A DNA stretch of 64,000 nucleotides, taken from Acetobacteraceae bacterium. GTDB taxonomy: Bacteria > Pseudomonadota > Alphaproteobacteria > Acetobacterales > Acetobacteraceae. The position numbers and the translations under genes were made by a program. This document shows positions 15,214 through 34,614 of the stretch, piece after piece (within the stretch, counting starts at the first letter, position 1; every line of letters starts with the position of its first letter). The notes under the pieces were generated by a model. It made no database searches, was not told where the DNA came from, and saw only the letters and a program-made list of their open reading frames with translations. Where the stretch lies: assembly GCA_965199555.1 (NCBI GenBank), contig CBDASJ010000029.1, positions 12,357-76,356 of the forward strand, written 5' to 3'.

Positions 15214-15217
15214 CGGC

Positions 15218-17644
15218 ATGACATTTCGATTTCGACGCCCGGTCGCGGCCCTGCTGGCGCTGGCGCTGTTTGCCGGCCCGGCCGGTGCCTCCACCGGTGA
15301 CGCGAGCACCGATTGGGGCCTGAGCGAGTTCGGCGGCTCCACCGCCGATCGGCAGATGCTGTTTGGCGGCACCCCCGGAGTGCTGATGGCAAGCTCCCCG
15401 GCCAGCCTGTTGTTCGTCGGTTGGCGCCGCCTGCACGGGCAAACCGTGGGCACGAAGGCCGGGGAAGCCCTCGCGGTGCCTTGCTGCGGCGGACCGCTGG
15501 GCCCGATGGACGGCATGTTCGCCTGGGTGGACGCCCGCAAAGCCGTGCCCGGCGCGGCGGCGATCGGCACCAGCCTGGACACGGAACGGCCCGGCCCCGA
15601 CTACACCAGCATCCCCAACTGCCTGGACAACGCCTTCCGCACCGCGATCCGGACGCTGAAGGATCGCGTGCAGACCTACGGCGCCGACTCGCCGGACGTC
15701 CGCTTCTGGCTCGGCACGCAGGACGCCGTGTTCCAGGCCTGTTCCAAGCCGGTCGCCGCGCTGCCGGCGTTGCCGGACGCGGCGCCCGCCTGGTTGCAGG
15801 CGGATTACCGTTACCAAACGGCCGCCTTGGCCTTCTACAACGCCGACTTCCCGGCAGCGGCGGACGCGTTCGCCGCCATCGCCGGGGACGCCGCGTCGCC
15901 TTGGCACGACATCGCGCCCTACCTCCGGGTGCGGGCGTTACTGCGCCGCGCGCTCGTGTCCAAGGCAACGAGCGACTTCGCCGCCGCGCGACAGGCCGCG
16001 GCGGCGATCCAGGCCGGTGCGCCGATGCACGACGCAGCCGGGCAATTGGAACAAATGGCGCAACTGCACGGCGAACCCGCCGTGGCGCGGGATCGCCTGG
16101 TGGCGCGGCTGGCCGAACCGGTGCTGGCGGACACGGCGGCGCTCGACTTCAAGGACCTGCAGTCGATCCCCGCGGCGCCGGACAAGCCCGAGCTGCTGGA
16201 CTGGATCGCCACGTTCAAGACCGGCGCCGCCGCCCCGCCGAATCCGCCGGACCCGCAGGGCAGCCCGCTGGACCAGGCCCGTGCCGCCGATGGCCGCCGG
16301 GTGGCCGCGTTGGCCCATGCGCGGGACCGCTACGCCGCCGGGCACGACCCGGCATGGCTGCTGGCCGCGCTGGCACTGGCGCAGCCGGACGACCCGGCAA
16401 ACGTGCCCACGATCACCGACGCAACCGCGCTCGATCCCGCCGCGCCAGCGTATTTAATCGCCTTGTACCACCGCATCCGCTTGACCGCCGTCAGCGCGGA
16501 CCCGGCGGCGACCCGGACGATGCTTGACACGGTGCTGGCCCGCACGGACCTGACCGGCACCACGCGCAACCTGTTCCTGGCGGAGCGGATGCTGGTAGCC
16601 GCAGACAGCGGCGACATGGCCCGCCACGCGCTTCGTGCCGTGCTCTGCGGGCAAAAGGATCCTGGCTGCAAGGCGGATGAGTGGGGCTATGACGGCCGCG
16701 GCAGCGGCTTGTTCGACGCGGATGCGGGCAAGGAAACGCGCGGCCTGGGGGACGACGCCCGCTACCTGATCGACCGGATGGCGCTGGCCAGCCGGGTGGC
16801 GCTAGGCCGCGACCCTGCCCTGCCCGCCCCCATCCAGCTCGACCTAGCGCTGACCAGCTTCGCCCGCGCCGTCCTGGTGCACGACGAGTCCACCGTGGAC
16901 GCGCTCTGCGCCCCGTTGCAGGGGCTGTTGCCGGTGATGTCGGCGGAGTTCGCCGCGATCCCCGCGGCACGGCCGGGGCCGGACCGGCAGTTCGCGGAGT
17001 TCCTGGTGTTCGCGAAGATACCGGGGCTGCGGGTGGACCTGCTGGATTACACCAGGCCGATTGGCAAGATCGCCGAGTTCACCGGCGGTTGGCCGAACTG
17101 GGTGGTGCTGGGCAAGCCTGACCCAGGCATCATCCCGCCCGCCCCGGTGCTGTACGACAGTGCCGGCTACCAGACGGCGGACGTGCCGGCCGGAACGGAT
17201 CTGGGCGACGGCCACGTCCGCATACCGGACGTGGTGTGCAAGGGATTGTGCGGCGCCGGCGGCTTCGTGCCCCACCCGATCGCCTTCCTGTCCGCCACGG
17301 CCGCCCGGGCCTCGCTTGAACGGCACCTGCTTCCACCGCCGGGCCAGTATGCCGACCCGGCGAAACTGTCAGCCGACCGAAGCGCCGCCTTTCCCGCCAG
17401 CCAGGACGCAACGGCCAAGCCAGCCGTCCCGCCACCGGGGTCGGTCTACGTTTGGGACTTCATCCTCGACTATGCCGCACATCACCCGCAGGACCCCCGC
17501 GTGCCGGAAGCGCTGAGTTGGGTGATCCATGTCGGGCATTACGGCCAGGGCCACGACCATTCTGGCAAGCGCGCCTTCATGCTCCTGAAGTCCCGCTACC
17601 CGGACAGCCGATGGGCGAAGGACAATCCCCTGTATTACGACTGA
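15218..17644 (+). CDS. Large exported hypothetical protein (808 aa)
   Basis: ATG 15218 lies 4 nt after the upstream stop. Signal peptide MTFRFRRPVAALLALALFAGPAGAS. The Ala/Leu-rich helical middle part may be TPR-like. I recognised no family. Confidence 0.7.
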   Translation: MTFRFRRPVAALLALALFAGPAGASTGDASTDWGLSEFGGSTADRQMLFGGTPGVLMASSPASLLFVGWRRLHGQTVGTKAGEALAVPCCGGPLGPMDGMFAWVDARKAVPGAAAIGTSLDTERPGPDYTSIPNCLDNAFRTAIRTLKDRVQTYGADSPDVRFWLGTQDAVFQACSKPVAALPALPDAAPAWLQADYRYQTAALAFYNADFPAAADAFAAIAGDAASPWHDIAPYLRVRALLRRALVSKATSDFAAARQAAAAIQAGAPMHDAAGQLEQMAQLHGEPAVARDRLVARLAEPVLADTAALDFKDLQSIPAAPDKPELLDWIATFKTGAAAPPNPPDPQGSPLDQARAADGRRVAALAHARDRYAAGHDPAWLLAALALAQPDDPANVPTITDATALDPAAPAYLIALYHRIRLTAVSADPAATRTMLDTVLARTDLTGTTRNLFLAERMLVAADSGDMARHALRAVLCGQKDPGCKADEWGYDGRGSGLFDADAGKETRGLGDDARYLIDRMALASRVALGRDPALPAPIQLDLALTSFARAVLVHDESTVDALCAPLQGLLPVMSAEFAAIPAARPGPDRQFAEFLVFAKIPGLRVDLLDYTRPIGKIAEFTGGWPNWVVLGKPDPGIIPPAPVLYDSAGYQTADVPAGTDLGDGHVRIPDVVCKGLCGAGGFVPHPIAFLSATAARASLERHLLPPPGQYADPAKLSADRSAAFPASQDATAKPAVPPPGSVYVWDFILDYAAHHPQDPRVPEALSWVIHVGHYGQGHDHSGKRAFMLLKSRYPDSRWAKDNPLYYD

Positions 17645-17678: not shown

Positions 17679-18070
17679 TCAGCGCACGGTTGCGGTGATA
17701 CCGCCGTCTACGACGAGCTGGGTGGCGTTCACGTAGGCCGACTCGTCCGACGCCAATTACAGGGCCGCGCGGGCAACGTCCCACGCGCTCCCCATCTTGC
17801 CCGTGGGCGACCGCTTGTGGCGTGCGTCCTTCACCTGCTGCATGTCGGGATAGGCCGCGCCTAAGCTGCCCACGATGTGAGGGGTGTCGATGAACCCCGG
17901 CACGATGACGTTGCAGCGAATGCCCTTGCCGGCGTATTGCACCCCGATGCTTTGCGTCGCCCTGGATGGCGGCCGCCTTGCTCGACGCGTAGGCGATATA
18001 GGGCATGCCGAGATCGCGGATGCCGCCGATGCTCGACACGTTGATGATCGACCCGCTTCCTTGCCGCTCC
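17679..18070 (-). pseudogene. Short-chain dehydrogenase/reductase (SDR) remnant: 5'-truncated, one frameshift, one in-frame stop
   Basis: GSGSIINVSSIGGIRDLGMPYIAYASSKAAAIQ carries the YxxxK active site. After a frameshift near 17960 comes ATQSIGVQYAGKGIRCNVIVPGFIDTP...WDVARAAL. An in-frame TAA (17757-17759) follows, then LASDESAYVNATQLVVDGGITATVR and the stop at 17679-17681. The Rossmann N-terminus is absent. Confidence 0.7.
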
Positions 18071-18407
18071 GGGCTTCGACACGAAGGACCGCATCCTGTT
18101 CGTGGTGGACGGGTTCTCCGCGACCCATCACCACCGGCCCGGGCATTGCGGCCTGACCGCGGGTGAACAGCCGATCCCGGATACGGAGATGATGAAGATC
18201 ATAAACGAACTCGCCCTGCAATGGACGCGCTACACCGATGCCGCTACGACCTTCGCCGACCTCGACGAATTGCTGACCCTGTTGCGGCCGCGCTTCATCG
18301 CGCCCGCCCATGGTGCCGTCATCGACCGGTCCGACCTCATGATCCCGTTGATGAAGCGTGCCATGTGCGGAGAGGAGGCCGGCGCGCTGGACCGGGCGGC
18401 GGCTTGA
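18048..18407 (+). pseudogene. 5'-truncated paralog of the MBL-fold gene at 24922..25740
   Basis: GFDTKDRILFVVDGFSATHHHRPGHCGLTAGEQPIPDTEMMKIINELALQWTRYTDAATTFADLDELLTLLRPRFIAPAHGAVID aligns with WAFDTTERTLFVSDAFAFLHYHEAQRCDFLASEQPPPDVAMIKYFNERAMYWTRHTDVSASFADLDEMLRVLDPALIATGHGGVVD. An in-frame stop lies at 18045-18047. Confidence 0.65.
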
Positions 18408-18996
18408 GCGCCGCCGCATCGCTGGATCGGGGCTCGCGTTCGATTACGCTTGCGGATGGTGCGGTGTTCGCGACCGCCGGGTTCGTCCATACCGAGCGGC
18501 CGACATCGTGGATCGATCCGCTTCTATCCGGCTTCCTCGCCACGTCTTGCCATGTCCTGCGTGCCATCGAGGTGCTGCCGACCACGCTTCGCGTGCTGCC
18601 GAAGCAGCATTTGTATGAGCGGAAAACCCGCACGCTGTTCGGTTCGGACACGTGGGGCTTTGTTCCCCAGGCGACGGACATTGCGATGGAATCGTCTGGC
18701 ATCGGGATGAGCGCCTATCCGTTTCCGCCGTCGCGCGGCCCCTCCTGCACCGGTTTGAGTGGCTGGCCGGCGTGGACACGTCGCCGATGCCGGCCGAAAT
18801 CCATGAATTGCTAACCCGCCCGATCGACCGGATCTGCAGCAGCTACGGTTGCGTCATCGAAGGCAGCGCGTTGGTGACGACGGTGTTGCAGAACACGATC
18901 GCCGCCTTGCAGGCGCTGTCCCAAACGGCCCGGGTCGGCAGGATGGACAAGCTCGTCCGCGACAGGATCGCGAACGCGGTGAACGTTGCGCGCTGA
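18408..18996 (+). pseudogene. Decayed paralog of the MBL-fold partner gene at 25745..26689 (internal deletion plus frameshift)
   Basis: ...ADGAVFATAGFVHTERPTSWIDPLLSGFLATSCHVLR | AIEVLPTTLRVLPKQHLYERKTRTLFGSDTWGFVP is followed, after a frameshift near 18705-18720, by ...ARPLLHRFEWLAGVDTSPMPAEIHELLTRPIDRICSSYGCVIEG. This matches the intact gene except for about 108 missing residues. Confidence 0.6.
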
Positions 18997-19800
18997 TCAG
19001 CAGGGCAAGGCGTTGGGCAGGCAATGCAGTGCCCGCAACCCGCCCGGGATGCGGCCGATCTGCTTGCTCAACGCCCCTGCATGGGCCGACAAGCCGGCCA
19101 CCAGTTCTGCCAGATTGTCCAGCGACATGCCGATGCCTGCAACACTGAGGGATGCGATCACCTCGCCGCCTTCCATCCGCACCGGCACCGCGACGGCCCT
19201 GACACCCTCGAAGAATTCGCCGCTGTCCAAGGCGTAGCCGCAATGCTGGACGTTGCGGATTTCCTCGGCAAGCCGGCTCGGCGCGACGATCGTCTTGGAT
19301 GTCAGCGCCACGAAGCCCGCACTGAACACGTACTCGTCCAGCTTGCGCGGATGCAGCGCCGCCAGCATGACCTTGCCGGGTGCAGTGCAGTACGCATCGT
19401 AATGCGCGCCAACCGCGGCGTGCCGCTTCGGGTCCTCGCAGGTATCCGCGCCGGCGACGATGTAGATCTCGGTGCCGTCCAGCACGCTCAGCCGGACGCA
19501 CAAGTCGCGCATGGTCAGCATCTGGCGCAACCGCAGATCCACCACCTCCTGCAAGGCGCGCCGGGCCCGGACGCCTTGGTCGTGCAGGGCCAGCAGGCGT
19601 GGCCCCAGCGTGTAGGCCCCGCCCCGATCCACGCTGACCGCCCCGGCGCCCTGCAACGTGCGGAGCAGGCGGTGGGTGGTGGCGATCGACAGGTTGGCGG
19701 TTGCGGCCGCCGCCCGCAGCGTCACGCCGCCCGGCGTGTTGCACACGACGTCGACAAGGTCGAGCGCCTTGAGGATCGACTTGTTGGTGGGGGTCGTCAT
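18997..19800 (-). CDS. IclR family transcriptional regulator
   Basis: The N-terminal wHTH SILKALDLVDVV...GVTLRAAAATANLSIATTHRLLRTL and the C-terminal effector domain are of typical IclR length (267 aa). Confidence 0.9.
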   Translation of the reverse strand: MTTPTNKSILKALDLVDVVCNTPGGVTLRAAAATANLSIATTHRLLRTLQGAGAVSVDRGGAYTLGPRLLALHDQGVRARRALQEVVDLRLRQMLTMRDLCVRLSVLDGTEIYIVAGADTCEDPKRHAAVGAHYDAYCTAPGKVMLAALHPRKLDEYVFSAGFVALTSKTIVAPSRLAEEIRNVQHCGYALDSGEFFEGVRAVAVPVRMEGGEVIASLSVAGIGMSLDNLAELVAGLSAHAGALSKQIGRIPGGLRALHCLPNALPC

Positions 19801-19895: not shown

Positions 19896-21830
19896 TCAGT
19901 GCAGGAAAATCGTGGAGATTCCGGGCACGGCGGCAATGACGACCACGCCCAGGGCCAGCACCGCGAGGTAGGGCCAGATCCTGGCCATCCCGGCGGCAGG
20001 GTCGATCCGGCTGATCGCACAGGCCTGATAGTAGCCAATACCGAAGGGCGGCGTGTACAACCCAACGCCCATCGAGAGCACCGCCACGATCGCGTACTGC
20101 ACCTCGTGGATGCCCAGGCTGCGAGCGATCGGGAACAGCATCGGGCCGAACACCACGATGCCGGGAATGCCTTCCAGGAGGCTGCCGGACACCAGGAAGA
20201 CGCAGATGGAGATCGTCCAGAAGCTGAGCTTGCCACCGGGCATGGTGGTGATGCTTTGCGCCAGGTCCTGGGAAAAGCCGGTCTGGGTCAGTGCCCAGGA
20301 CACGGCGTTGGCGGCGGCGAAGATCACCATGATGGCGCCGGCCAACGACGCCGTATCCTTCAGCACGGCATAGGCTCGACGCCAATCGGTCCAGCGGTAA
20401 ACCACCAGCCCGGCCACGACGGTGTAAAGGACGCCGATCGTCGCCACCTCCGTCGCGGTGGCAACCCCCTCCACGACGGCGGTTCGGATCAGGATCGGCA
20501 GCAGCAACCCGGGAGTGGCCATGACCAGTGCCGCCGCGGCCATGCGCCAGGACGCGCGCGGCGGCAAGGTGATCTCCTGGTTGGAGCGGGCGCGGGCGAG
20601 CACGCAGGTCATCAGCGCCAGCACAAGCGCCGGCAGCAGCCCGGCGGTGAACAGGCCGGAAATCGACACCCCGGTGACGGCGCCGACGGTGATCAGCACC
20701 AGGCTGGGCGGGATCGTCTCACTCATCGAGCTGGACGCCGCCAGCAAGGACACCAGCTCCCCATCCGGGATGCCACGGCGGCGCATTTCCGGCACCAGCG
20801 CCGGCGCCACCGCGGCCATGTCGGCCGCTTTGGCCCCGGAGATGCCGGAGATGAGATACATGGCGCCCAGCAGCACGTAGGACAGCCCACCGCGCAGATG
20901 GCCGATCAGGGTGGACAGGAACGCGATCAGGGTACGCGCCATGCCGGTCGCCTCGAACAACAGGCCCAGCACGATGAACATCGGGATTGCCAACAGGATC
21001 AGCGGGGACAATCCAGCCTCGAACCGGCTGGCGACGATGGACAGCGGGACCGACGAGTTCCATTGCAGGAACGCCAGCGTCGACAAGCCGAAGGCAAAGG
21101 CAATGGGCATGCCCAGCGCCACACAAATACCCCCGAGCCCGATGAAGAACAGCACTAGGTCATACGTGCCATCGGTGGCCCAGCTCACGCCATAGCACAG
21201 GGCGACGCCGGCGGCCGTCAGCGCGGCCGCGAAGCCGACCAGAAGCCAGCCGCGTTCGTTGCCGGTCGCGATGACCCGGCACAGGCAGAACACCGCCATC
21301 AGCCCCAGCCCGGCGGGAAGCGCCGCGGCCTTCCACCCGTCGGACAGACCCAAGATCGGGTTCACCGCCCCGGCCGCATCCGCCACGAAGCCGAAGGAGA
21401 AGATGAACAGCAACACAAGGAAAACCAGGCTCAGTGTTTGCGCCACCAGTTCGCGTACGACGTTGTTCCGCGGTGACAGGCGCTTCTCCGCCAGCGTCAA
21501 GCGCAGGTGCTGTTGCCTGGCCAAGGCCACCACGGAGCCCAACATCGACAGCCACACGAACAACAGCGACGCGATGTCGTCCGACCAGGTGAACGGCCGG
21601 CCAAACACGTAGCGTGATATCACGCCGGCGAGCAGGATCAGCAGTTCGGCCAACACGATGATTGCCGCGACGTGCTCGATCGCCGAAACCAGCACTCGCC
21701 CGGCCCCGGCCGTGAAGCGGGCGGTGGCACCATGGTCGCCCCGGGTTCGGCGGACGTCCGCGGCGGTGCCGAGCGGGCCCGCCAAAACGACCCCGCTATC
21801 CAACTGCTCGTTGTGCGGCAGCAGGTTCAT
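19896..21830 (-). CDS. TRAP transporter fused small/large permease (DctQ-DctM fusion)
   Basis: ATG 21830 is preceded by GAGGGGGA. About 644 aa, polytopic. The N-terminal roughly 190 aa are DctQ-like, followed by a DctM-like 12-TM body. Confidence 0.88.
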   Translation of the reverse strand: MNLLPHNEQLDSGVVLAGPLGTAADVRRTRGDHGATARFTAGAGRVLVSAIEHVAAIIVLAELLILLAGVISRYVFGRPFTWSDDIASLLFVWLSMLGSVVALARQQHLRLTLAEKRLSPRNNVVRELVAQTLSLVFLVLLFIFSFGFVADAAGAVNPILGLSDGWKAAALPAGLGLMAVFCLCRVIATGNERGWLLVGFAAALTAAGVALCYGVSWATDGTYDLVLFFIGLGGICVALGMPIAFAFGLSTLAFLQWNSSVPLSIVASRFEAGLSPLILLAIPMFIVLGLLFEATGMARTLIAFLSTLIGHLRGGLSYVLLGAMYLISGISGAKAADMAAVAPALVPEMRRRGIPDGELVSLLAASSSMSETIPPSLVLITVGAVTGVSISGLFTAGLLPALVLALMTCVLARARSNQEITLPPRASWRMAAAALVMATPGLLLPILIRTAVVEGVATATEVATIGVLYTVVAGLVVYRWTDWRRAYAVLKDTASLAGAIMVIFAAANAVSWALTQTGFSQDLAQSITTMPGGKLSFWTISICVFLVSGSLLEGIPGIVVFGPMLFPIARSLGIHEVQYAIVAVLSMGVGLYTPPFGIGYYQACAISRIDPAAGMARIWPYLAVLALGVVVIAAVPGISTIFLH

Positions 21831-22089
21831 GTTCGATTCCCCCTCAGAACGACGCGAGCACCCCCACAAGGGTCAAGACCGTCCTGACGGCGTTAAGAGA
21901 AGCCGCGCACCAGGCAACGATCAAGACCGCAGATGGCAGTTCTCAAATTGTGAGATGAGCCAGCGCGGCGGCTTGCAGTCGGGTCACAGGCAACCCTAGC
22001 TTAAGTCCAGAAGAAATGAGCACCAGCCAGGCTTCGGTTCTCCGAAGAACATCGGCTGAATAGTTCGGTTACGGGACGGAGGAAGCATA

Positions 22090-23109
22090 ATGGCTGTCAT
22101 GACCAGGCGCGGCTTTTCCACGGCGATGACGGCGGGTGCTCTCACCCTGGCCTCGATCGGCCGGGCTTCGGCCGCCGCATTCAATTTCAAGTTGGCTACG
22201 GACATGCCGCCGGCGGACCCAATGACGGCTCGGCTGACCGAGGCGGCCAAGGCCATCGAACAGGAAAGCGGCGGCCGGCTCGCCATCCGCGTGTTTCCCA
22301 GCAGCCAACTCGGCACGATTTCCGAGGAGCTGAACCAGGTGCGCAGTGGCGCCTTGGAACTGTATTGCTGCGGCTACGGCAACCAGATCCCGGTGGCGCC
22401 GCTGGCCGGGATCAACTCGCTCGCCTTTGCCTGGTCCGGCTACGACAAGATCTGGCCAGCCATGGACGGGGAGTTGGGTGCTTTCCTGGCCGCTCAGGTC
22501 GCAAAGACCGGAACCATCCAGCACGTCAGCAAGGCGTTCAACGTCGGCTTCCGGCAGACCACCTCCGGCCACACGCCGATCCATACGCCGGATGACCTCA
22601 AGGGCTTTAAGATACGCGTGCCGCCGGCGCCGATCCTGGCAACGCTGTTCAGCGAGCTCGGGGCCTCGCCGGTCAACCTGAGCCTGGGGGAGCTGTATCC
22701 CGCCTTGCAAACCGGGTTGGTCGAAGGCTCCGACAACCCGCTGTGGACCCTGGCGGCCATGCGGATCTACGAGGTGCAGAAGCACATCACCCTGACGAAC
22801 CATAGCTGGGACGCGTTCGTGGTGGTGGCCAATAGCCGCGCCTGGGCCCGGTTGCCCGAGGATTTGCAGCAACTCGCCAGCAAGCATTTCAGCCTTGCCG
22901 CGGTCGCGCAGCGCGAAGACGTGGCCAAGCTGGAAGTCGAAGCGAATGCGAAGCTGCAGGCCAACGGCATGACGATCTTCCAGCCCCCGGCGGACCTGTT
23001 CCGCACCGCGCTGAGCAAGACGGATTACTACCAGAACTGGCGTCAGAAAATCGGGCCTGAGGGATGGGCGGTGCTGCAACGCACGGCCGGTCTTCAAGGC
23101 CTGGCCTGA
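22090..23109 (+). CDS. TRAP transporter substrate-binding protein (DctP family)
   Basis: Signal peptide MAVMTRRGFSTAMTAGALTLASIGRASA. The DctP-like pattern ...RLAIRVFPSSQLGT... is present. The gene is divergent from the TRAP permease. Confidence 0.88.
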   Translation: MAVMTRRGFSTAMTAGALTLASIGRASAAAFNFKLATDMPPADPMTARLTEAAKAIEQESGGRLAIRVFPSSQLGTISEELNQVRSGALELYCCGYGNQIPVAPLAGINSLAFAWSGYDKIWPAMDGELGAFLAAQVAKTGTIQHVSKAFNVGFRQTTSGHTPIHTPDDLKGFKIRVPPAPILATLFSELGASPVNLSLGELYPALQTGLVEGSDNPLWTLAAMRIYEVQKHITLTNHSWDAFVVVANSRAWARLPEDLQQLASKHFSLAAVAQREDVAKLEVEANAKLQANGMTIFQPPADLFRTALSKTDYYQNWRQKIGPEGWAVLQRTAGLQGLA

Positions 23110-23132
23110 CATCACCGAAGGAGCACGTTCCC

Positions 23133-24167
23133 ATGTATGATGATTATTTCGTTTTCGACAATGTGGTGCACATGTTCGACAACCGTCCGTCGAACAAGCT
23201 TGGCGAGGAAGGCCGCAAGATCATCGACTCGATCTGGGGTGCGGCCAAGCTGTTCTCCAACGACACCTACATCGCCCACCCGACCTTCGGCGACGACTAC
23301 ATCACGACGGAGGAAGCCCACCGCGTGCTGTTCGAGGAGTCGGACACCGACATGGTGATCGCCCAGACCGTGCCGCTGATGGGCTGGTTCAAGGAAGGCT
23401 TCTCCCCCGCCCGCGCCAACCACGCCCTGGCCGCCGCCTATCCCGACCGCGTCGTGTTCTGCGGCGGCGTGGACCCGCTGTACCACGGCTCGCGCGGCGC
23501 GCTGGACGAGATGCAGCGCCAGAAGGACGAGTGGAACGCCCGCTCCTTCAAGTTCTACCAGTCCCAGTTGAACGGCAGCCTGTGGCGCGTCGACGACCGG
23601 CACATCGCCTACCCGCTGTGGGAGAAGTGCCTGGAGCTCGGCGTCACCAACGTGCAGTTCCACAAGGGCCTGCCGTTCGGCCGCCAGTTGCTTGACCACC
23701 AGCGGCCCAACGACATCGAGCAGGCGGCCATCGACTTCCCCGACCTGACCTTCATCATCCACCATTTGGGCATGCCGTTCATCGACGACACGATCAACAT
23801 CGCGTCGCGCCACCCCAACGTGTGGCTGGCCTTGTCGGCCTGGATCAACATCTATCCCATCCAGCCCCGGGTCGCGCTGGACATGCTGGGCAAGTGCCTG
23901 ATGCTGGTCGGCGAGGACCGGCTGCTTTACGGCTCCGAAGCCTTCGTGTGGCCGAGCCTGCAGCCCTACATCAAGGCGTTCGCGGACATGACCATGCCGG
24001 AAGAGCTGCAGGAAGGCTACGGCTACCCGCAGATCACCCGGGAGATGAAGCGCAAGATCTTCGGCGAGAACCAGGCCCGCCTGCTGGGCATCGACATCGA
24101 GAAGAAGAAGCGCGAGCTGGCACCCCGCGCCCGCGCGTCGCAGCCCGAGCTGCAGGCGGCCAAGTGA
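23133..24167 (+). CDS. Amidohydrolase_2 (PF04909-like) family protein
   Basis: ATG 23133 is preceded by GAAGGAG. TIM-barrel amidohydrolase-like pattern ...FIIHHLGMPFIDD...LLYGSEAFVWP...IFGENQARLLGI. The N-terminal metal motif is atypical (FDNVVHMF). Confidence 0.75.
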   Translation: MYDDYFVFDNVVHMFDNRPSNKLGEEGRKIIDSIWGAAKLFSNDTYIAHPTFGDDYITTEEAHRVLFEESDTDMVIAQTVPLMGWFKEGFSPARANHALAAAYPDRVVFCGGVDPLYHGSRGALDEMQRQKDEWNARSFKFYQSQLNGSLWRVDDRHIAYPLWEKCLELGVTNVQFHKGLPFGRQLLDHQRPNDIEQAAIDFPDLTFIIHHLGMPFIDDTINIASRHPNVWLALSAWINIYPIQPRVALDMLGKCLMLVGEDRLLYGSEAFVWPSLQPYIKAFADMTMPEELQEGYGYPQITREMKRKIFGENQARLLGIDIEKKKRELAPRARASQPELQAAK

Positions 24168-24463
24168 GCGGCGCGCAGGACCTCGGCGCCGGCATCACGG
24201 ACGCGCTGGACGGCGTGCGGCGGCGCCTGCGCTCGCATGCCGGCGACGTGGAGGTCGTGTCGGTGTCGGAGGCGGGCGAGGTCACGCTCGCCTTCACCGG
24301 CAACTGCATCAAGTGCCCGGCCCAGGCCATGACCTACGGCGCCAGCATCCTGCCGGTCGTCGAACGCCTGCCCGGCGTCAGCGCCGTGTCGATGCGCAAC
24401 CTGTCCGTGTCGGACGCGGCGGTGCGGCGCATCCGCACCATGTTCAGCGACAAGGTTGCATAA
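24164..24463 (+). CDS. NifU C-terminal-domain-like protein (CxxC)
   Basis: GTG 24164 overlaps the upstream TGA (GTGA). LRSHAGDVEVVSVSEAGEVTLAFTGNCIKCPAQAMTYGASI matches the NifU-C / Nfu pattern. Confidence 0.7.
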   Translation: MSGAQDLGAGITDALDGVRRRLRSHAGDVEVVSVSEAGEVTLAFTGNCIKCPAQAMTYGASILPVVERLPGVSAVSMRNLSVSDAAVRRIRTMFSDKVA

Positions 24464-24464
24464 G

Positions 24465-24896
24465 ATGGCAAGTTACGCAGTGCGCATGATCGACGCCGCC
24501 ACCGCGATCAAGGCGACGGTGGCGGCGACGGAAAAGGCCAAGGAGATCGGCATCGGCATCTGTGCCGCCGTGTACGACAGCTCCTCCCAGCTCAAGGCGT
24601 TCATCCGCATGGACGGAGCGCCGATGCTGTCGGCGCCGATCGCGGAAGACAAGGCGCACACCTCGGCCAGCTTCCGCTCGCCAACGCACGCCCTGTTCGA
24701 GTGGATCTCGAAAGACCCGCCGCTGCTGCACGGGATCACCCAGTATCCGCGCTTCATCGTGTTCGGCGGCGGCTACCCGATCACCGAAGCCGGCGAGCTG
24801 ATCGGCTCCATCGGCGTCAGCGGCGGACACTACAGCCAGGACATGGAATGCGCCAAAGCCGCACTCACCGCAATCAACGCAGAAATCCCAGATTAG
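24465..24896 (+). CDS. GlcG/HbpS-like (DUF336) protein
   Basis: ATG 24465 lies 1 nt after the upstream stop. ...FGGGYPITEAGELIGSIGVSGGHYSQDMECAKAAL is the typical DUF336 C-terminal signature. Confidence 0.75.
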   Translation: MASYAVRMIDAATAIKATVAATEKAKEIGIGICAAVYDSSSQLKAFIRMDGAPMLSAPIAEDKAHTSASFRSPTHALFEWISKDPPLLHGITQYPRFIVFGGGYPITEAGELIGSIGVSGGHYSQDMECAKAALTAINAEIPD

Positions 24897-24921
24897 CGTC
24901 CGCAACCGCGAGCACCCTGCC

Positions 24922-25740
24922 ATGGCCGAAACCCATCGTCATCCGCCCAGCGGCCACTTCCCACGCGTCCTCAGCCCCAGTCTGCTGTGGACGGGCGGGT
25001 GCCTGAACATCACCTACCAGGACCGCGTCGTGCATTCGCACGTGTGCGCCTACCTGGTCGTCGGGTCCGAGAAGACCATGCTGGTCGATACCGGCAACGC
25101 ACCCGACTGGCCGCACATGGAACATGACGTCGAGCGTTTCCTGGACGGGCGACCGCTCGACTACATCTTCCCGACCCACGGTGAGCTTCCGCATTGCGGA
25201 TTGCTCACCCAGTGGCTGTCGAAATACCCGGACGCGCTCGCCGTCGGCGCGCTGCGCGACTTCCCGCTCTACTACCCGCAATACGCCCACCGCATGCGCA
25301 ACGTCGCGGCCGGCGACGCGATTGATTTGGGTGACCGCCGCATCGTGTTCATTCCGCCGGTTTGGCGCGACCTGCGCGACACGCTGTGGGCGTTCGACAC
25401 CACGGAGCGGACGCTGTTCGTGTCCGACGCATTCGCCTTCCTGCACTACCACGAGGCGCAGCGTTGCGATTTCCTGGCCAGTGAGCAGCCACCGCCGGAC
25501 GTGGCGATGATCAAGTATTTCAACGAGCGGGCGATGTACTGGACGCGGCACACCGACGTCTCCGCAAGCTTCGCCGACCTCGACGAAATGCTGCGCGTGC
25601 TCGACCCGGCGTTGATCGCCACCGGGCATGGCGGCGTGGTGGACGTGCACAGCGCCATGGTGCCCCTGGTCAAGGCCGGGATGGACGTGCGTGTGCCCGC
25701 AGTGCCGCCGCCGCTCGCGGTCGCCGTGGCGGCCGAGTGA
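24922..25740 (+). CDS. MBL-fold protein resembling the flavodiiron-protein core domain (H-x-E-x-x-H variant)
   Basis: ...CAYLVVGSEKTMLVDTGNA...LDYIFPTHGELPHCG...TLFVSDAFAF...LIATGHGGVV. The order and spacing resemble the FDP/ODP-type MBL domain rather than a hydrolase HxHxDH. Confidence 0.68.
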   Translation: MAETHRHPPSGHFPRVLSPSLLWTGGCLNITYQDRVVHSHVCAYLVVGSEKTMLVDTGNAPDWPHMEHDVERFLDGRPLDYIFPTHGELPHCGLLTQWLSKYPDALAVGALRDFPLYYPQYAHRMRNVAAGDAIDLGDRRIVFIPPVWRDLRDTLWAFDTTERTLFVSDAFAFLHYHEAQRCDFLASEQPPPDVAMIKYFNERAMYWTRHTDVSASFADLDEMLRVLDPALIATGHGGVVDVHSAMVPLVKAGMDVRVPAVPPPLAVAVAAE

Positions 25741-25744
25741 ACCC

Positions 25745-26689
25745 GTGGTCCCCGCCTCCCTGAGCAGTTCGGTGGCCGCCATCGTGCCCGACGCGATCTA
25801 CGCAGTGGGCGGCGGCGTCCCGGCGGACGTTTCGGTGAGTTGGATCCCCCAGGGGCTTGGGGGATGGATGCCGGTTCAGTGCTTCGTCTTGCGGGACGGG
25901 GGCGAGGCCGTGGTGATGGACAGCGGCCTGGGCGTGCATCGCGCCGTCGTCGAAATCGGGCTGAGCCAGCTTCTGGACGGCCATCCGCCGCCGCGCGCGC
26001 TGATCAGCCGGTGGGAGCCGGACTCCATGGTCAACCTGCCCTGGTTGATCGAGCGGTTCGGCGTCCGCGACGTGCTGTCCTATGGCGGCATCAACCCGCT
26101 GGATTTCTTCGAACGGTTCGAGGAAGCAACCGCCACCGCGCAGGTCGAGGCAGCCGCCGGTTCGGCAAAGCTGGTGCCGATCGGCTTGGGCGAGATGGTC
26201 CATGTCGGCGCGCTTCGCATCGAGGTGGTGCCGGTCAGCCTGCGGCTGCTGCTGGCCGTCTGGTTCTACGAGCACACCACCGGCTCCCTATTCACCGCGG
26301 ACTCATTCGGCTTCCTGCCCAACCCGGCACGCGCCGCCCCGTTCGCCATTCGGCCAGGCGTGGAGATGCTGTCGCCCGCCGTGCTGCACCGCAGCCTCGA
26401 AACCAAGTTCGACTGGCTCATCGGCGCATACAGCGACGCGCTGATCGCCGATTTGGAAGCCTTGCACGCCCGTCTGCCCATCCAGCGCGTGTGCCCCAGC
26501 TTCGGTGGCGTCATCGAAGGCAAGGACAACGTGGCCCGACTGTTCCGCTCCACGGCGACCGCGCTGCACCGATTGGCGGCGGAGCGCCCGCCCAGCCCGC
26601 TTGCCGGCTTCGACTGGCAACACGCCCTTGCAGCCGAAGCCGTCGTGGACCTCGGGAGTCCAGACCGTATGCTGCGCTCCCTGCCTTAA
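25745..26689 (+). CDS. Degenerate MBL-fold partner protein (metal-binding His residues lost)
   Basis: GTG 25745 lies 4 nt after the upstream stop. It has the same fold landmarks as the preceding gene (...QCFVLRDGGEAVVMDSG...ISRWEPDS...SLFTADSFGF...CPSFGGVIEG), with Trp, Ser and Phe in place of the His ligands. Confidence 0.6.
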   Translation: MVPASLSSSVAAIVPDAIYAVGGGVPADVSVSWIPQGLGGWMPVQCFVLRDGGEAVVMDSGLGVHRAVVEIGLSQLLDGHPPPRALISRWEPDSMVNLPWLIERFGVRDVLSYGGINPLDFFERFEEATATAQVEAAAGSAKLVPIGLGEMVHVGALRIEVVPVSLRLLLAVWFYEHTTGSLFTADSFGFLPNPARAAPFAIRPGVEMLSPAVLHRSLETKFDWLIGAYSDALIADLEALHARLPIQRVCPSFGGVIEGKDNVARLFRSTATALHRLAAERPPSPLAGFDWQHALAAEAVVDLGSPDRMLRSLP

Positions 26690-26734: not shown

Positions 26735-27613
26735 TCAGGCCGGCTTGTAGGCGCTGCCGTCTTCCACACGCTGCGGATCACCGACGTAGCGGCCGTCGCG
26801 CGGAACCGCGATCTTCCCGAAATCGCGGGCCAACATGTGCAGTGCGTCCCGCATCGCGGAGCCGTGCAGGGCGCGGCCGTGGCCGGTGACGACCACCTCC
26901 GGCTCCAGCCCGGCCAGCGTGTGCACCGACCGCTCCGCCGCCTGCCAATCATGGGTGAAGTACTTCGGCGGCCCATGGATTTCGGGCGCTTGCGTGGCAC
27001 TGGCATAGGCGCTCTCCGCCCCGACGGTGACGAAGGCGTCGCCGGCGATCAGCGTGCGGTCGTCCGCCCGCCACAGCGACACGTGGCCGACCGAGTGCCC
27101 GGGCGTGTGCAGCCAACGCCAGCCCGGCAGTTCCGGGATGCTGCCGTCCATCGGCAGGTCGCGTAGCCGGCTGCCGACATCTACCGGGCTGCGCGGGTAA
27201 AGCGGCGACAACAACGCCATCGCCCCGCCGCCGACGGTGGGGTCCGCTTTCGGGTAGGAGGCCGAGCCATCAAGGTACGGACGCTCCAGCTTGTGGGCAT
27301 AGACCGGCACGTTCCACTGCTCCGCCAGCGTTTCCAGCGCGCCCACGTGGTCGAAATGCCCGTGCGTCAGCACGATGGCCCGGGGCGGCGCACCCGCGCC
27401 GAACCTGTCCGCGGCGGCACCGGCGATGCGCCCTGCCATACCGGGAATGCCGGTGTCCACCAGCACCCAATCGGGTTGGCCCGGCTGGCCCACATACACC
27501 ACGTTCACAAACGCCAGCCGGCGGTATGCCACGCCGGGGGCAGCCTCCAACGTGCCGTCTTCGGCCTCAGCCGCAGCGACGCTCCCAGACGCGATGGGCA
27601 CCTGTTCTGTCAT
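26735..27613 (-). CDS. MBL-fold metallo-hydrolase (canonical HxHxDH)
   Basis: VLVDTGIPG...AIVLTHGHFDHVGAL...HTPGHSVGH; 292 aa. Confidence 0.85.
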   Translation of the reverse strand: MTEQVPIASGSVAAAEAEDGTLEAAPGVAYRRLAFVNVVYVGQPGQPDWVLVDTGIPGMAGRIAGAAADRFGAGAPPRAIVLTHGHFDHVGALETLAEQWNVPVYAHKLERPYLDGSASYPKADPTVGGGAMALLSPLYPRSPVDVGSRLRDLPMDGSIPELPGWRWLHTPGHSVGHVSLWRADDRTLIAGDAFVTVGAESAYASATQAPEIHGPPKYFTHDWQAAERSVHTLAGLEPEVVVTGHGRALHGSAMRDALHMLARDFGKIAVPRDGRYVGDPQRVEDGSAYKPA

Positions 27614-27730: not shown

Positions 27731-28246
27731 TCAGCCGTGGCTGGCCTTGGGAAGCTTGCTGCCGAGAAACGCCTTCGCCTCCTCGCTCAGGCCGGTCGTC
27801 GGGAGGGTCATGAATTGGTTCGGCGCCAGGAACAGCATCCAAGCGCCGTCGATCTGCCAAACCGCGACGATGCTCGACCAGGGCAGCGTGCTCGACCCGA
27901 GGTTGGACGCGACGGTCATGGTCGCCGCACCGAAGGTCAACCGCGCTGTGGGCGGGTCCATGGCGCGATAGCGCCCCACGGTGTTCACGAAGTGCGCCCG
28001 CCACACGGCCCCTACTAAGGCGGCCAGGAACACCAGGCTCGCCAAGGCCAGGCCGGTGGCAAAGGAAGGGCCGGTCCATTCGCCGAGGGCCAGGCTCGCC
28101 AGCAGCAAGCCGGCCGCCGCCAGCCACAGCCAGCCGCGCCGCAGCAGCCGGCGCCAAACGAACACGCGCACGGCCCGACGCAGCATCGCCTCGGTATATC
28201 GCAACTCGACGGTGTCGCCGTCCTGCAATCGGGCTGTCCCGTTCAT
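27731..28246 (-). CDS. YcxB-like membrane protein
   Basis: Two adjacent TM helices (WLWLAAAGLLLASLAL / ATGLALASLVFLAALVGAVW) are followed by a soluble tail, as in YcxB-like proteins. The start is ATG 28246 or 28264. Confidence 0.5.
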   Translation of the reverse strand: MNGTARLQDGDTVELRYTEAMLRRAVRVFVWRRLLRRGWLWLAAAGLLLASLALGEWTGPSFATGLALASLVFLAALVGAVWRAHFVNTVGRYRAMDPPTARLTFGAATMTVASNLGSSTLPWSSIVAVWQIDGAWMLFLAPNQFMTLPTTGLSEEAKAFLGSKLPKASHG

Positions 28247-28515
28247 TGCGCGGGCACTCTGCACGCGCCGCCCCGTCGGTCAAATACCCCCGGGTGCCAG
28301 GGTGGCGCCCAGCACTCGGACGTATCGGAACCCTGCGGCCTAACGTATTGGACGCCTTTCCAGGTGGCCGCTTGTATCCGCGCGGGCATCGGTCCGCCTC
28401 CGGGGGCATCGTCGCCCGTGCCGTAGGGGCGGCAGTCACGGACAACGCCCACGGCTTCCGTGGCAATCACGGGCTGATAAGAACGCGGTATGACGCTACG
28501 CATGGGAGAACCCGA

Positions 28516-30606
28516 ATGAACCAGATCGCTGCGGCGCCAGCACGCAACGCCCCGGACGAGCGGCATGACTGGCGGCGCATCCTCTACCTGACGCAATTGT
28601 CGCGCGCGCTGGACCGGATGGAGGAGGAGCGGCTCGTCCCGGAAAAGAAGGTGCTGTACCAGTTCTCGGCCCGCGGCCACGACATGGCGCAGGTCATGCT
28701 CGGCCTGCACCTGACGGACGCGCAAGATGCCGCCTGCGGCTATTACCGGTCGCGCCCGCTGCTGCTGTCGCTGGGGGTGGACGTGGCGGACGCGCTGGGC
28801 TCGGCGATGGGCCGCGCCGGCGGCTACTCGGACGGGCGCGACATCGGCGTGGTGTTTAACTACCCCAACCCGCACGGCGCCTCCGCCCTGCCCATGTGTG
28901 GCGGCGTTGGGGCGCAGTACACCCCCACTGTCGGCTGGGCGCAGGCGATCGAGTATCACCGCACGCAATTGGCCGACGCGGCCTACCAGGACGCGATCGC
29001 CGTGGTGCTCGGCGGCGACGGGTCGGTCGCGTCCAACGGCTTCTGGTCGGCGCTTGTCATCGCCACCACCCAGTCGCTGCCGATGCTGTTCTACATCGAG
29101 GACAACGGCTACGGCATTTCCGTCCCGTCCAGCTTCCAAACGCCCGGCGGCGACATCGCAGCGAACCTCGCGAGTTGGAAGAACCTCGCCATCTTCGACG
29201 GTGACGGCACCGATCCGGCGGAAGCGATCCGCTTGGTGGAACAGGCCACCACCCATGTCCGCGGCCGGCACGGCGCCGCGTTGCTGCGGCTGCGCGTGCC
29301 GCGGCTGCAAGGCCACAGCTTCCAGGACACCCAGGCCTACAAGACCGAGACCTTCGTCGCCAGCGAATGGGAGCGCGACCCGCTGCCCAAGCTGCGCAGC
29401 TTCCTGGTGCCGGCGCTGCTGGACGAGGCGGAATGGGACGAGATCGCCCGCCAGGCCGCCGATGCCGCGGAAGCGGCGCGCGAATCCGCCGAAGCGCGGC
29501 CGGTCGCCCGGCCCGAAGGCGTCACGCGCAACGTGTTCTATGAAGGGCGGCTGCAAACCCAGGGCGGCCAGGCCACCCACGGCTATCGCGCCCCGGACAG
29601 CACCGACCAGCCCAGCCCGGCCGGCCAGCGCATCAACATGGTGACCGCCATTCGCCGCACGCTGGAGCACGAGCTGGACGTCAACCCGCGCGTGGTGCTG
29701 TTCGGCGAGGATATCGGCCCCAAGGGCGGCGTGCACGCCGTGACCCTGGGATTGCAGGAACGCTTCGGCGAAGCGCGCGTGTTCGACACCAGCCTGTCGG
29801 AGGAAGGGATCGTCGGCCGCGCGGTCGGCATGGCGCTGGCCGGGCTGATGCCGGTGCCGGAAATCCAGTTCCGCAAATATGCCGAGCCCGCGACGGAGCA
29901 GATCAACGATTGCGGTTCCATGCGCTGGCGCACCAACAACCGGTTCGCCGCCCCCATGGTGCTGCGCGTGCCTGGCGGCTTCTTTAAATGCGGCGACCCA
30001 TGGCACAGCCAAACCAACGAGGTCGCCTTCGTGCACAGCCCCGGCTGGAAGGTCGCCGTGCCCTCCAACGCCCAGGACGCGGTCGGCCTGCTGCGCACGG
30101 CGTTGCGGGGCAATGACCCGGTGCTGTTTTTCGAGCACCGGGCGATGCTGGACTTCGCCTGGGCACGGCGCCCCTATCCCGGCGACGATTTCGCCCTGCC
30201 GTTCGGCCAGGCCAGCCTGCTCCGCACCGGGGGCGACGCCACGCCCTCCCTGATCACGATCGTCACCTGGGGCGCGATGGTGCCGCGATGCGAGGAAGCC
30301 GCGTCGGCCACGTCCGCCGACATCCTGGACCTGCGCACCCTGATGCCGTGGGACAAGGCGGCGGTGCTGGCCTCCGTCCGGCGCACCCGGCGCTGCCTGA
30401 TCGTGCACGAGGATTTGCGCACCGCCGGGTTCGGCGCGGAGATCGCCGCCGTGGTGGCGGACGAGGCGTTCATGGACCTGGACGCCCCGGTGTCGCGCCT
30501 CACCATGCCGGACATCCCCAGCCCGCATAACCCGGTGCTGATGGAATGGGCGCTGCCTTCCGTGGAGCGCATCCGCGATAAGATCGACGAGCTGGTGGGG
30601 TTCTGA
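28516..30606 (+). CDS. 2-oxoacid dehydrogenase E1 component, fused alpha/beta subunits (TPP-dependent)
   Basis: ATG 28516 follows GGGAGAA. The alpha part carries the TPP motif GGDGSVASNGFWSALVIATTQSLPMLFYIEDNGYGIS. The beta part has ...VFGEDIGPKGGVHAVT...FDTSLSEEGIVG.... The product is 696 aa. Confidence 0.85.
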   Translation: MNQIAAAPARNAPDERHDWRRILYLTQLSRALDRMEEERLVPEKKVLYQFSARGHDMAQVMLGLHLTDAQDAACGYYRSRPLLLSLGVDVADALGSAMGRAGGYSDGRDIGVVFNYPNPHGASALPMCGGVGAQYTPTVGWAQAIEYHRTQLADAAYQDAIAVVLGGDGSVASNGFWSALVIATTQSLPMLFYIEDNGYGISVPSSFQTPGGDIAANLASWKNLAIFDGDGTDPAEAIRLVEQATTHVRGRHGAALLRLRVPRLQGHSFQDTQAYKTETFVASEWERDPLPKLRSFLVPALLDEAEWDEIARQAADAAEAARESAEARPVARPEGVTRNVFYEGRLQTQGGQATHGYRAPDSTDQPSPAGQRINMVTAIRRTLEHELDVNPRVVLFGEDIGPKGGVHAVTLGLQERFGEARVFDTSLSEEGIVGRAVGMALAGLMPVPEIQFRKYAEPATEQINDCGSMRWRTNNRFAAPMVLRVPGGFFKCGDPWHSQTNEVAFVHSPGWKVAVPSNAQDAVGLLRTALRGNDPVLFFEHRAMLDFAWARRPYPGDDFALPFGQASLLRTGGDATPSLITIVTWGAMVPRCEEAASATSADILDLRTLMPWDKAAVLASVRRTRRCLIVHEDLRTAGFGAEIAAVVADEAFMDLDAPVSRLTMPDIPSPHNPVLMEWALPSVERIRDKIDELVGF

Positions 30607-30610
30607 CGCG

Positions 30611-34607: not shown

Positions 34608-34614
34608 GGCCGCC

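Follow-up and report, generated by a model that had tools for sequence, protein, structure and literature searches.

A TRAP-linked, putatively catabolic operon of an Acetobacteraceae bacterium that unites an Amidohydrolase_2–NifU-C unit with a metallo-beta-lactamase-fold pair

In the protocatechuate 4,5-cleavage pathway, LigI, LigJ and LigK share a simple logic, in which a hydrolase/hydratase yields a tertiary hydroxy-polycarboxylate and a lyase then splits it. Flavodiiron proteins (FprA, ROO and NorV) and the diiron sensor ODP represent a second theme, in which a core of the metallo-beta-lactamase (MBL) fold serves the detoxification or sensing of O2 and NO. Small accessory proteins of the Nfu/NifU-C and DUF336 families are found beside metalloenzymes and inside catabolic clusters, respectively. 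All of these families meet in one operon within a 64,000-nucleotide stretch of DNA (hereafter the window) from an Acetobacteraceae bacterium (contig CBDASJ010000029.1 of assembly GCA_965199555.1, positions 12,357 to 76,356). The operon encodes a DctP-type solute-binding protein of a tripartite ATP-independent periplasmic (TRAP) transporter, an Amidohydrolase_2 protein (AH2), a NifU-C-like protein, a DUF336 protein and two MBL-fold proteins, MBL-A and MBL-B. It is read here, with a probability of about one half, as a catabolic operon that breaks down a small carboxylic acid, is induced by its substrate and unites modules that are conserved separately. For all five enzyme families the folds are known; their architectures and their combination are not.

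Gene content was taken from the list of open reading frames (ORFs) together with Pfam and NCBIfam scans, and the junctions between genes were read base by base. On the plus strand, dctP (22090-23109; PF03480, 206.8 bits), whose product has a signal peptide-like N-terminus, is followed by the genes for AH2 (23133-24167; PF04909), the small NifU-C (Nfu)-like protein (24164-24463; PF01106), the GlcG/HbpS-like DUF336 protein (24465-24896; PF03928), MBL-A of 272 aa (24922-25740; PF19583, the ODP family, and PF00753) and MBL-B of 314 aa (25745-26689), which opens with GTG. A GGAG lies 9 nt ahead of the AH2 ATG, the AH2 and NifU-C genes share a GTGA overlap, and the remaining gaps are 1 nt (NifU-C/DUF336), 25 nt (DUF336/MBL-A) and 4 nt (MBL-A to the GTG of MBL-B). 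Divergent from this string runs the gene of a fused DctQ-DctM permease (19896-21869, minus strand; PF04290 at 100.6 bits and PF06808 at 302.9 bits in a single ORF). Its ORF opens at TTG 21869, and its probable start is ATG 21830, in agreement with the 644-aa ENA gene call. On the downstream side of the permease gene, and co-directional with it, lies an IclR-family regulator gene (18997-19800, minus strand; PF01614, 99.5 bits; PF09339, 36.5 bits), whose product has the PcaR/PcaU/PobR subfamily as its nearest NCBIfam model, at a score under the cutoff. The stretch from which the permease gene and dctP diverge (21870-22089) is, by its position alone, the presumed promoter/operator region. A promoter scan of the region returned no sigma-70 consensus match, and in a genome of about 68% G+C such a scan is uninformative. 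The same applies to the terminator scan, which returned 9 terminator-like sites against a shuffle expectation of 5.4 +/- 2.2, both of those on the plus strand falling within coding sequence. Independent gene calls on a near-identical metagenome contig (ENA ERZ24825755, 85.7 kb) agree with this layout, and an independent ENA/Logan record (P0120) reproduces the MBL-B call at 314 aa and 100% identity. An earlier reading of this DNA made from its letters alone (the sequence-only reading) had proposed the coordinates and Pfam families of these eight genes and a single tightly packed operon divergent from permease and regulator. All eight genes are confirmed as it gave them, and the overlapping or nearly touching junctions bear out the operon.

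The arrangement of DctQM divergent from DctP-AH2-NifU-DUF336-MBL-A-MBL-B recurs in Ancylobacter pratisalsi, two Bosea genomes and an Acetobacteraceae metagenome-assembled genome (MAG), and a short contig of a further MAG is filled by the five enzyme genes in the order seen in the window. Gene order and tight spacing are repeated in four other alphaproteobacterial lineages. DctQM orthologues of 61-72% identity stand divergent from DctP at four loci (L001, L011, L012 and L013); the regulator has an IclR counterpart of 68% identity at the equivalent place in L011, and the other three loci have IclR genes in the vicinity. In Mycolicibacterium smegmatis, the genes for MBL-B, MBL-A, AH2, NifU and DUF336 form one string behind the gene of a major facilitator superfamily (MFS) transporter, which stands in for the TRAP system. 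Divergent from the string are genes for a CoA-transferase, a lyase resembling 3-hydroxy-3-methylglutaryl (HMG)-CoA lyase and a GntR regulator. The AH2 proteins of the window and of M. smegmatis are 63% identical, and the DUF336 protein is present in M. smegmatis and all block-carrying relatives at 47-81% identity. Directly after the M. smegmatis DUF336 gene lies a peroxiredoxin (AhpC/TSA-Redoxin) gene (L090, 10023-10694), which would fit a peroxide-producing pathway. The co-occurrence of the block genes is far beyond chance. The sequence-only reading had tied its operon interpretation to conservation of the gene neighbourhood, and that interpretation stands, because the block does co-occur across genomes. 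It had also named no characterised counterpart, and none was found in the PDB, in NCBIfam or in the literature searched, where we found no description of the cluster, of an MBL heteromer or of AH2-NifU pairing; none of the five enzyme-gene proteins attains an NCBIfam equivalog model. Neighbour families in other genomes were counted with a home-made gene caller that mis-starts some genes and that was never used for coordinates in the window. An apparent natural NifU-MBL-A fusion (P0119) was discarded as an artefact of a frameshift-ridden long-read contig (L173; ENA ERZ25039595 contig_6585), which carries the same cluster with nearly every gene frameshift-broken.

The MBL-A and MBL-B families are paralogous (hhalign probability 99.3%, E 3e-20, full length, 18% identity). 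Structure models of the two proteins (AF2 pLDDT 89.5 for MBL-A and 81.3 for MBL-B) were searched with Foldseek, and the top PDB matches were flavodiiron proteins for MBL-A (E 1e-15) and likewise for MBL-B, followed for both by PqsE and the diiron sensor ODP. The aligned part is the N-terminal core of the flavodiiron proteins of about 400 aa, with TM-scores of 0.6-0.7 on the query and 0.45-0.5 on the target. The structure search thus supports the earlier description of both proteins as flavodiiron-core-like. MBL-A shows the same ancestry in its sequence, matching PF19583 at 44.4 bits (cutoff 27.2) over profile positions 3-194 of 194 and also matching flavodiiron proteins; MBL-B matches neither PF19583 nor any other Pfam family or PDB sequence. 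Both lack the HxHxDH zinc-binding motif that marks the hydrolytic MBL superfamily (PF00753 core), in keeping with their earlier designation as a non-hydrolase pair. In contrast to flavodiiron proteins, the pair has neither a flavodoxin/FMN domain, as the absence of a flavodoxin Pfam match from both proteins attests, nor a rubredoxin.

The metal sites of the two proteins have diverged. Among 32 diverse homologues of MBL-A, the residues H86, E88, P90, H91, D150, D169, H175, H177, E188 and H236 are invariant, of which H86, E88, H91, D169 and H236 correspond to the first, second, fourth, bridging and last flavodiiron ligands. The motif H86-G-E88-L-P90-H91 converts the flavodiiron H-x-E-x-D-H to H-x-E-x-P-H: the invariant Pro replaces the ligand Asp85, and the invariant D150 aligns with the ligand His148 of Moorella (M. 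thermoacetica) FprA. Further departures from flavodiiron proteins and ODP are the extra invariant H175, H177 and E188. MBL-B has none of the histidine ligands, carrying R89-W-E91-P-D93-S in place of the motif and F253 in place of the last His; its invariant residues are R89, E91, D93, K221, D223, R248 and C250. Neither protein has the full diiron ligand set H-x-E-x-D-H...H...D...H. Residue conservation thus assigns to MBL-A a predicted, modified two-metal site of flavodiiron/ODP ancestry, which MBL-B does not keep. MBL-B is presumed to be a degenerate paralogue that acts as a non-catalytic or substrate-binding partner subunit. MBL-B has lost all its histidine ligands, and the two proteins are not equivalent subunits.

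Across 83 non-redundant loci from Alphaproteobacteria and Actinomycetota, an MBL-A gene is directly adjoined by a same-strand MBL-B gene in 112 of 116 cases, and the other 4 have MBL-B within 1.5 kb. Either order occurs, A-then-B in 42 cases and B-then-A in 70. Relatives of MBL-B are few, numbering 645 in a profile search of 1.84 billion representative proteins, and they include natural single-chain fusions of 555-580 aa (P0323, P0326, P0331 and P0347), in which an N-terminal half matching full-length MBL-B and a C-terminal half matching full-length MBL-A are joined by a Pro/Ala-rich linker. Because of this strict pairing in either order and of the natural fusions, MBL-A and MBL-B almost certainly form a 1:1 heteromer of a metal-binding and a degenerate subunit, as had been suspected earlier. 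An obligate hetero-pair with a ligand-less paralogue differs from the homodimer of flavodiiron proteins and ODP. Oxygen activation by this putative enzyme is plausible.

A separate unit is formed by AH2 and the NifU-C-like protein. AH2 matches PF04909 at 108.6 bits (cutoff 26.4) through an alignment that spans only residues 98-320, and it attains no NCBIfam model. Its sole PDB relative, in sequence and profile searches alike, is the uncharacterised BB4693 (3irs). AH2 therefore shares its family with LigI and LigJ, and it also shares the comparable logic of co-located lyase genes, whereas similarity to these enzymes in sequence is undetectably low, even by profile. The residues D9, H13, H177, H210, H211 and E269 are invariant among 82 homologues and are candidate metal or catalytic residues. 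They resemble the canonical set (HxH, two His and the strand-8 Asp) and, by alignment, would differ at both ends, where D9...H13 replaces the N-terminal HxH of LigI/LigJ and E269 the strand-8 Asp. The sequence-only reading had singled out FDNVVHMF as an atypical metal motif, and F8, D9 and H13 within it are indeed invariant in 82/82 homologues. No cysteine is invariant in the 82 sequences; C110, for example, is conserved in less than 90% of them.

The AH2 subfamily comprises 688 clusters at E <= 1e-10 and is much larger than the MBL family. Its neighbourhoods were surveyed in 80 metagenomic loci fetched with an AH2 profile plus genomic loci, and pairing was scored where at least 250 nt of downstream sequence was available. 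In 80 of 84 loci, the gene that directly follows AH2 is a NifU-C gene; the two overlap by 4 nt in 50 of these 80 loci and by 1 nt in 8. An MBL pair or a DUF336 gene accompanies them in only a handful of loci, and in Ramlibacter and on a Shinella plasmid the AH2-NifU genes sit within quite different clusters. AH2 and NifU-C are an obligate two-gene unit of their own. We know of no characterised PF04909 enzyme with a NifU-C partner, and LigI and LigJ differ from AH2 in this respect too. The NifU-C-like protein belongs to AH2 and not to the MBL enzyme, because the AH2-NifU pairing occurs mostly without an MBL pair.

The partner protein keeps the PF01106 fold (44.9 bits; cutoff 27) and the CxxC of Nfu/NifU-C carriers, with C48 and C51 invariant in 80/80 sequences and H25, T57 and R89 also invariant. 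It scores far under the cutoffs of the NCBIfam NifU and NfuA equivalogs (21 bits vs 273). In an alignment to plant Nfu and to 1xhj, H25 takes the first position of the canonical DGGD/DGGN, which here reads H-A-G-D, so that a His/Cys/Cys site is possible where the carriers have DGGD/DGGN. A [4Fe-4S] cluster bridging the NifU CxxC and an AH2 cysteine was considered and ruled out, as AH2 has no invariant cysteine, and for the same reason AH2 is unlikely to receive a classical Fe-S cluster. Most simply, the NifU-C-like protein would be a His/Cys/Cys metallochaperone or a subunit of AH2. A sister clade offers a parallel: at four loci (L104, L105, L107 and L155), AH2 paralogues 28-32% identical to the AH2 of the window adjoin a gene of the PF01883 family (DUF59, Fe-S assembly type), which follows the paralogue gene in 3 of the 4 loci and precedes it in L105. 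An AH2-NifU pair is often found in the same locus. This DUF59 protein takes a position equivalent to that of the NifU-C-like protein. The NifU-C-like protein itself recalls PaaD (DUF59) of the phenylacetyl-CoA oxygenase operon, likewise a small Fe-S-assembly-type protein whose gene lies in a catabolic operon next to that of the metalloenzyme that it presumably serves. Some AH2-NifU contexts are of a sugar type, and a literature search on a D-apiose/apionate reading of these was unproductive.

The relatives supply candidate later steps. In Ancylobacter and Bosea, genes for a family III CoA-transferase and an HMG-CoA-lyase-like enzyme adjoin the permease gene, and the CoA-transferases of Mycolicibacterium and the alphaproteobacteria are 58-61% identical. 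The nearest models of the CoA-transferase are succinate--glutarate and succinyl-CoA:mesaconate CoA-transferases, and the lyase attains the HMG-CoA lyase subfamily cutoff (247.2 vs 246), with an HMG-CoA lyase as its best PDB match (6e-60). The HMG-CoA lyase and succinate-hydroxymethylglutarate-type CoA-transferase of leucine and HMG catabolism are the closest characterised relatives of the pair in Ancylobacter, Bosea and M. smegmatis; however, the two proteins of these relatives only just reach, or fail to reach, the equivalog or subfamily cutoffs, and a tblastn search of the 64-kb window finds neither gene. Two compact metagenomic operons, GntR | AH2-NifU-CoAT-HMGL and AH2-NifU-CoAT-DUF336-HMGL (CoAT, CoA-transferase; HMGL, HMG-CoA-lyase-like), link the AH2 unit to these enzymes and suggest that what AH2 makes is passed on to the CoA-transferase and the lyase. 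By analogy with the characterised enzymes, the two genes would point to a 3-hydroxy-3-substituted dicarboxylate as intermediate. In contrast to the LigK-type step on a free oxo-acid, the lyase here would act on a CoA ester.

The transporter gives a hint of the substrate. The system has the composition of a TRAP transporter, with a DctP-type binding protein (TIGR00787, 190 vs cutoff 175) and with DctQ and DctM in one fused ORF. The nearest solved relative of DctP is 4OAN (E 1.8e-81, residues 27-334 aligned, identity about 50%), a Rhodopseudomonas palustris protein with density modelled as (S)-2-acetolactate. 2-Acetolactate is a known ligand class of TRAP systems (PMC5812351). This hints at a small branched hydroxy- or oxo-acid as the DctP ligand. 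The DUF336 protein (PF03928, 117.5 bits vs cutoff 25) has as PDB relatives NahX (7e-22), the formaldehyde sensor EfgA (6e-18), PduO-C, OrfY and HbpS. Its gene is an accessory one within a catabolic cluster, as are those of GlcG (E. coli glycolate operon), PduO-C and OrfU2; the protein is not fused to an adenosyltransferase and lacks a secretion signal of the HbpS type. DUF336 genes occur in catabolic clusters that generate reactive aldehydes, and a role in small-molecule sensing has been assigned to the family (PMC8153426). The protein probably binds a small molecule, for which haem, cobalamin and an aldehyde are candidates. Given its solved relatives and this aldehyde-cluster role, it may be a binder of a reactive carbonyl intermediate or a cofactor, rather than a maturation factor of the MBL pair. 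A DUF336 gene also accompanies AH2-NifU where no MBL pair is seen on the contig, most of these contigs being short.

The MBL pair leads a life of its own as well. In about 75 loci fetched with MBL-A, no NifU, DUF336 or AH2 gene lies within 10 kb of the pair. Its neighbours there include TctC-type carboxylate-binding proteins (29 loci) and HpaI-type aldolases (25 loci), as well as LeuC/LeuD-like hydratases in Roseomonas, a molybdenum hydroxylase with isochorismatase and hydantoinase genes in Falsiroseomonas, and luciferase-like monooxygenases in Neorhizobium. About 30 loci of the Arthrobacter group (Arthrobacter, Sinomonas and Paenarthrobacter; L031-L055 and others) carry two tandem MBL-B/MBL-A pairs about 3 kb apart, in clusters with genes for a peptide-type ABC transporter and for isochorismatase-family, maleate-isomerase/Amdase-like, polysaccharide-deacetylase-like, amidase, class IV aminotransferase and HpcH-type aldolase proteins. 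This gene set recalls the maleamate branch of pyridine-ring catabolism. In Roseomonas and relatives, three genomes (L009, 6298-11813; L028; L030) hold MarR-cydA-cydB-MBL-A-MBL-B(-TctC) operons, in which the pair shares its operon with a cytochrome bd-type oxidase. What the contexts of the pair share is carboxylate catabolism ending in aldol-type C-C cleavage, in contrast to the detoxification and chemotaxis contexts of flavodiiron proteins and ODP. No reductase or ferredoxin gene recurs near the pair in the annotated neighbourhoods.

Together, these modules can be arranged into a pathway. The IclR-regulated TRAP system, consisting of DctP and the fused DctQM, would import a small acid, which MBL-A/B would transform first, by an oxidation or a ring or C-C opening that uses O2 without an external reductant; the main alternative for this step is a ring opening of the non-redox kind. 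An O2-dependent, reductant-free reaction is favoured because of the flavodiiron/ODP ancestry of the site and the lack of a recurring reductase or ferredoxin gene in the annotated neighbourhoods. AH2, metallated or stabilised by its NifU-like partner, would then hydrate, hydrolyse or decarboxylate the MBL product, by analogy with LigI and LigJ, and release a 3-hydroxy-3-substituted C5-C6 dicarboxylate. In the relatives, the CoA-transferase and the HMG-CoA-lyase-like enzyme would convert this dicarboxylate to acetyl-CoA and an oxo-acid; in the present organism, the corresponding genes may lie outside the 64-kb window or be absent. The DUF336 protein would bind a reactive carbonyl intermediate or a cofactor.

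Several points weigh against this pathway. The MBL-A site lacks two canonical flavodiiron ligands and may neither bind two irons nor react with O2. Which of the AH2 and MBL steps comes first is a guess, and substrate, metals and reaction types are predictions for the five proteins and their close homologues alike. The end of the pathway is extrapolated from relatives, since the window has no CoA-transferase and lyase genes. The ligand of 4OAN is only modelled density, in a protein with which DctP shares only about 50% identity. Finally, the neighbourhoods of the MBL pair are very diverse (sugar-acid-like, N-heterocycle-like and cytochrome bd), which fits a generic reaction and no specific chemistry. 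A more specific version of the pathway is put forward tentatively, and we consider it rather unlikely as a whole. In this version, the operon would hold two new architectures. One would be a heteromer of flavodiiron-core descent, made of a catalytic MBL-A and a ligand-less MBL-B and lacking both flavin domain and reductase, that oxidises or cleaves small carboxylic acids with O2 directly. The other would be an AH2 enzyme that cannot do without a His/Cys/Cys partner of the Nfu type (DUF59 type in a sister clade) as its metallochaperone or subunit. Together with a carbonyl-binding DUF336 protein, they would turn a branched acid of C5-C6 into an HMG-like CoA ester, in a route shared by soil alphaproteobacteria and mycobacteria.

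Among the alternatives, a non-redox role for MBL-A/B holds up best and is a possibility of some weight, even though the evidence tilts away from it. The pair would then be a lactone, enol-lactone, cyclic-imide or thioester hydrolase, a hydratase or a decarboxylase that prepares the substrate for AH2 and the lyases without oxygen. MBL-fold enzymes of catabolic clusters are mostly hydrolases, PqsE, an Fe-Fe thioesterase, ranks next among the structural matches of the pair, and two canonical diiron ligands are gone. The lack of a recurring reductase partner in the annotated neighbourhoods also suits a non-redox reaction, and the downstream aldolases and lyases accept hydroxy-acids of the kind that ring opening would yield. 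However, the hydrolase motif is missing from both subunits, and position 3 of the MBL-A motif is the Glu typical of flavodiiron and ODP sites. MBL-A also passes the ODP threshold, its best sequence and structure matches are all O2- or NO-reactive diiron proteins, and in three genomes the pair shares an operon with cytochrome bd oxidase genes.

The interpretation offered by the sequence-only reading itself was an oxygen-activating two-subunit MBL enzyme with NifU-C and DUF336 as its maturation helpers and AH2 as a separate enzyme. Some of its premises are sound: the five genes are translationally packed in a single operon and co-occur in six lineages including M. smegmatis, the fold of MBL-A is flavodiiron-like with a partial ligand set, and the NifU-C domain is known for Fe-S cluster delivery. 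The distribution of the helpers speaks against it. NifU-C follows AH2 in the 80 of 84 loci described above, nearly all of them without an MBL pair, and in the paralogous AH2 clade a DUF59 protein takes its place. Conversely, the roughly 75 solitary MBL-pair loci do without NifU-C, DUF336 and AH2 alike, and DUF336 turns up with AH2-NifU on contigs, mostly short, where no MBL pair is seen. A helper role of either protein for the MBL enzyme is thus not borne out, and this interpretation as a whole is now improbable.

A sensor or scavenger role is similarly improbable. MBL-A/B would bind O2, NO or Fe(II) and protect or regulate oxygen-sensitive steps, without being a pathway enzyme. This idea draws on the match of MBL-A to the family of ODP, a chemotaxis sensor with a peroxo-diiron state, on the existence of the MarR-cydA-cydB-MBL-A-MBL-B operons and on the peroxiredoxin gene after the M. 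smegmatis cluster. Yet no signalling partner (methyl-accepting chemotaxis protein (MCP), kinase or flavodoxin domain) was seen in the annotated MBL loci, and no MCP or Che gene lies beside the pair in the window or in the relatives with the same block, so that the chemoreceptor-coupled context of ODP is missing there. In one Falsiroseomonas locus, che genes occur about 4 kb downstream, separated from the pair by TctC and permease genes on the opposite strand. Moreover, the pair is translationally coupled within many different catabolic operons beside solute-binding proteins, and the invariant charged residues R89, E91, D93, K221, D223 and R248 of MBL-B suggest a substrate pocket. The separate occurrence of the modules elsewhere and the local decay of the genome around a pseudogenised second MBL pair might point to genes that came together by chance, or to a recent mosaic with no shared function. 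This is hardly credible in view of the order and tight spacing kept in four other alphaproteobacterial lineages, the five enzyme genes gathered in an actinobacterium and junctions that argue for co-translation. The four-component 6-hydroxypicolinate monooxygenase PicB was examined as a possible MBL-type enzyme and rejected, since it has been published as a Rieske oxygenase.

The second MBL pair lies on the far side of the regulator gene. Pseudogene remnants detected by tblastn at 18072-18984 (plus strand) represent a decayed MBL-A'/MBL-B' pair. Of MBL-A', only the C-terminal half is left (18072-18404), 73% identical to the second copy in L008; MBL-B' (18440-18984) is broken into three pieces and has suffered a frameshift and an internal deletion. 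The orthologous second pair of relatives (an Acetobacteraceae MAG and Ancylobacter) is intact and stands beside an MFS gene homologous to the transporter gene of the M. smegmatis cluster. A C-terminal fragment of a short-chain dehydrogenase (SDR) gene (17757-18146, minus strand) adjoins the decayed pair, and a similar SDR fragment of 78 aa is found beside the IclR gene of Ancylobacter (L001). Further upstream, an ORF of 886 aa (14984-17644, plus strand; 808 aa in the ENA call) encodes an Ala/Pro-rich protein with a signal-like N-terminal region and no Pfam family.

Convergent to the operon at its other end is the gene of a classical MBL hydrolase (26735-27613, minus strand) with the motif THGHFDH and a PF00753 match of 125 bits, followed by a gene for a YcxB-like small membrane protein (27731-28264, minus strand). 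Both genes are probably unrelated to the operon and are not conserved beside it in relatives. The region 28246-35400 (plus strand) looks like a second catabolic cluster: it encodes a fused E1 (alpha plus beta) and an E2 of a 2-oxoacid/acetoin-type dehydrogenase complex, then a GMC oxidoreductase and two proteins of the fumarylacetoacetate hydrolase family, with a LysR gene downstream. In Ramlibacter, a fused E1 gene directly follows AH2-NifU, but its product is 32% identical to the E1 of the window. The E1/E2 genes are not conserved downstream of the operon in the closest relative, and their link to the operon is weak.

If MBL-A/B truly uses O2, flavodiiron-type sites would extend from the detoxification and sensing of O2 and NO to reductase-free catabolic chemistry, and bacteria would offer, in the MBL fold, a case of a catalytic subunit teamed with a 'dead' paralogue. 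AH2 is broadly associated with NifU-C, or with DUF59, over hundreds of protein clusters and in many sugar-acid-like or organic-acid operons; no report of this association was found, and it implies a need for metal delivery or for a second subunit that the annotation 'amidohydrolase family protein' ignores. Both this association and a flavodiiron-derived heteromer without a redox partner would surprise specialists. The same gene set in the genetically tractable M. smegmatis makes these proposals directly testable. The five enzyme genes now carry generic names, such as 'MBL fold metallo-hydrolase', 'hypothetical protein' and 'NifU family protein', and the module structure of the operon is a basis for better family definitions.

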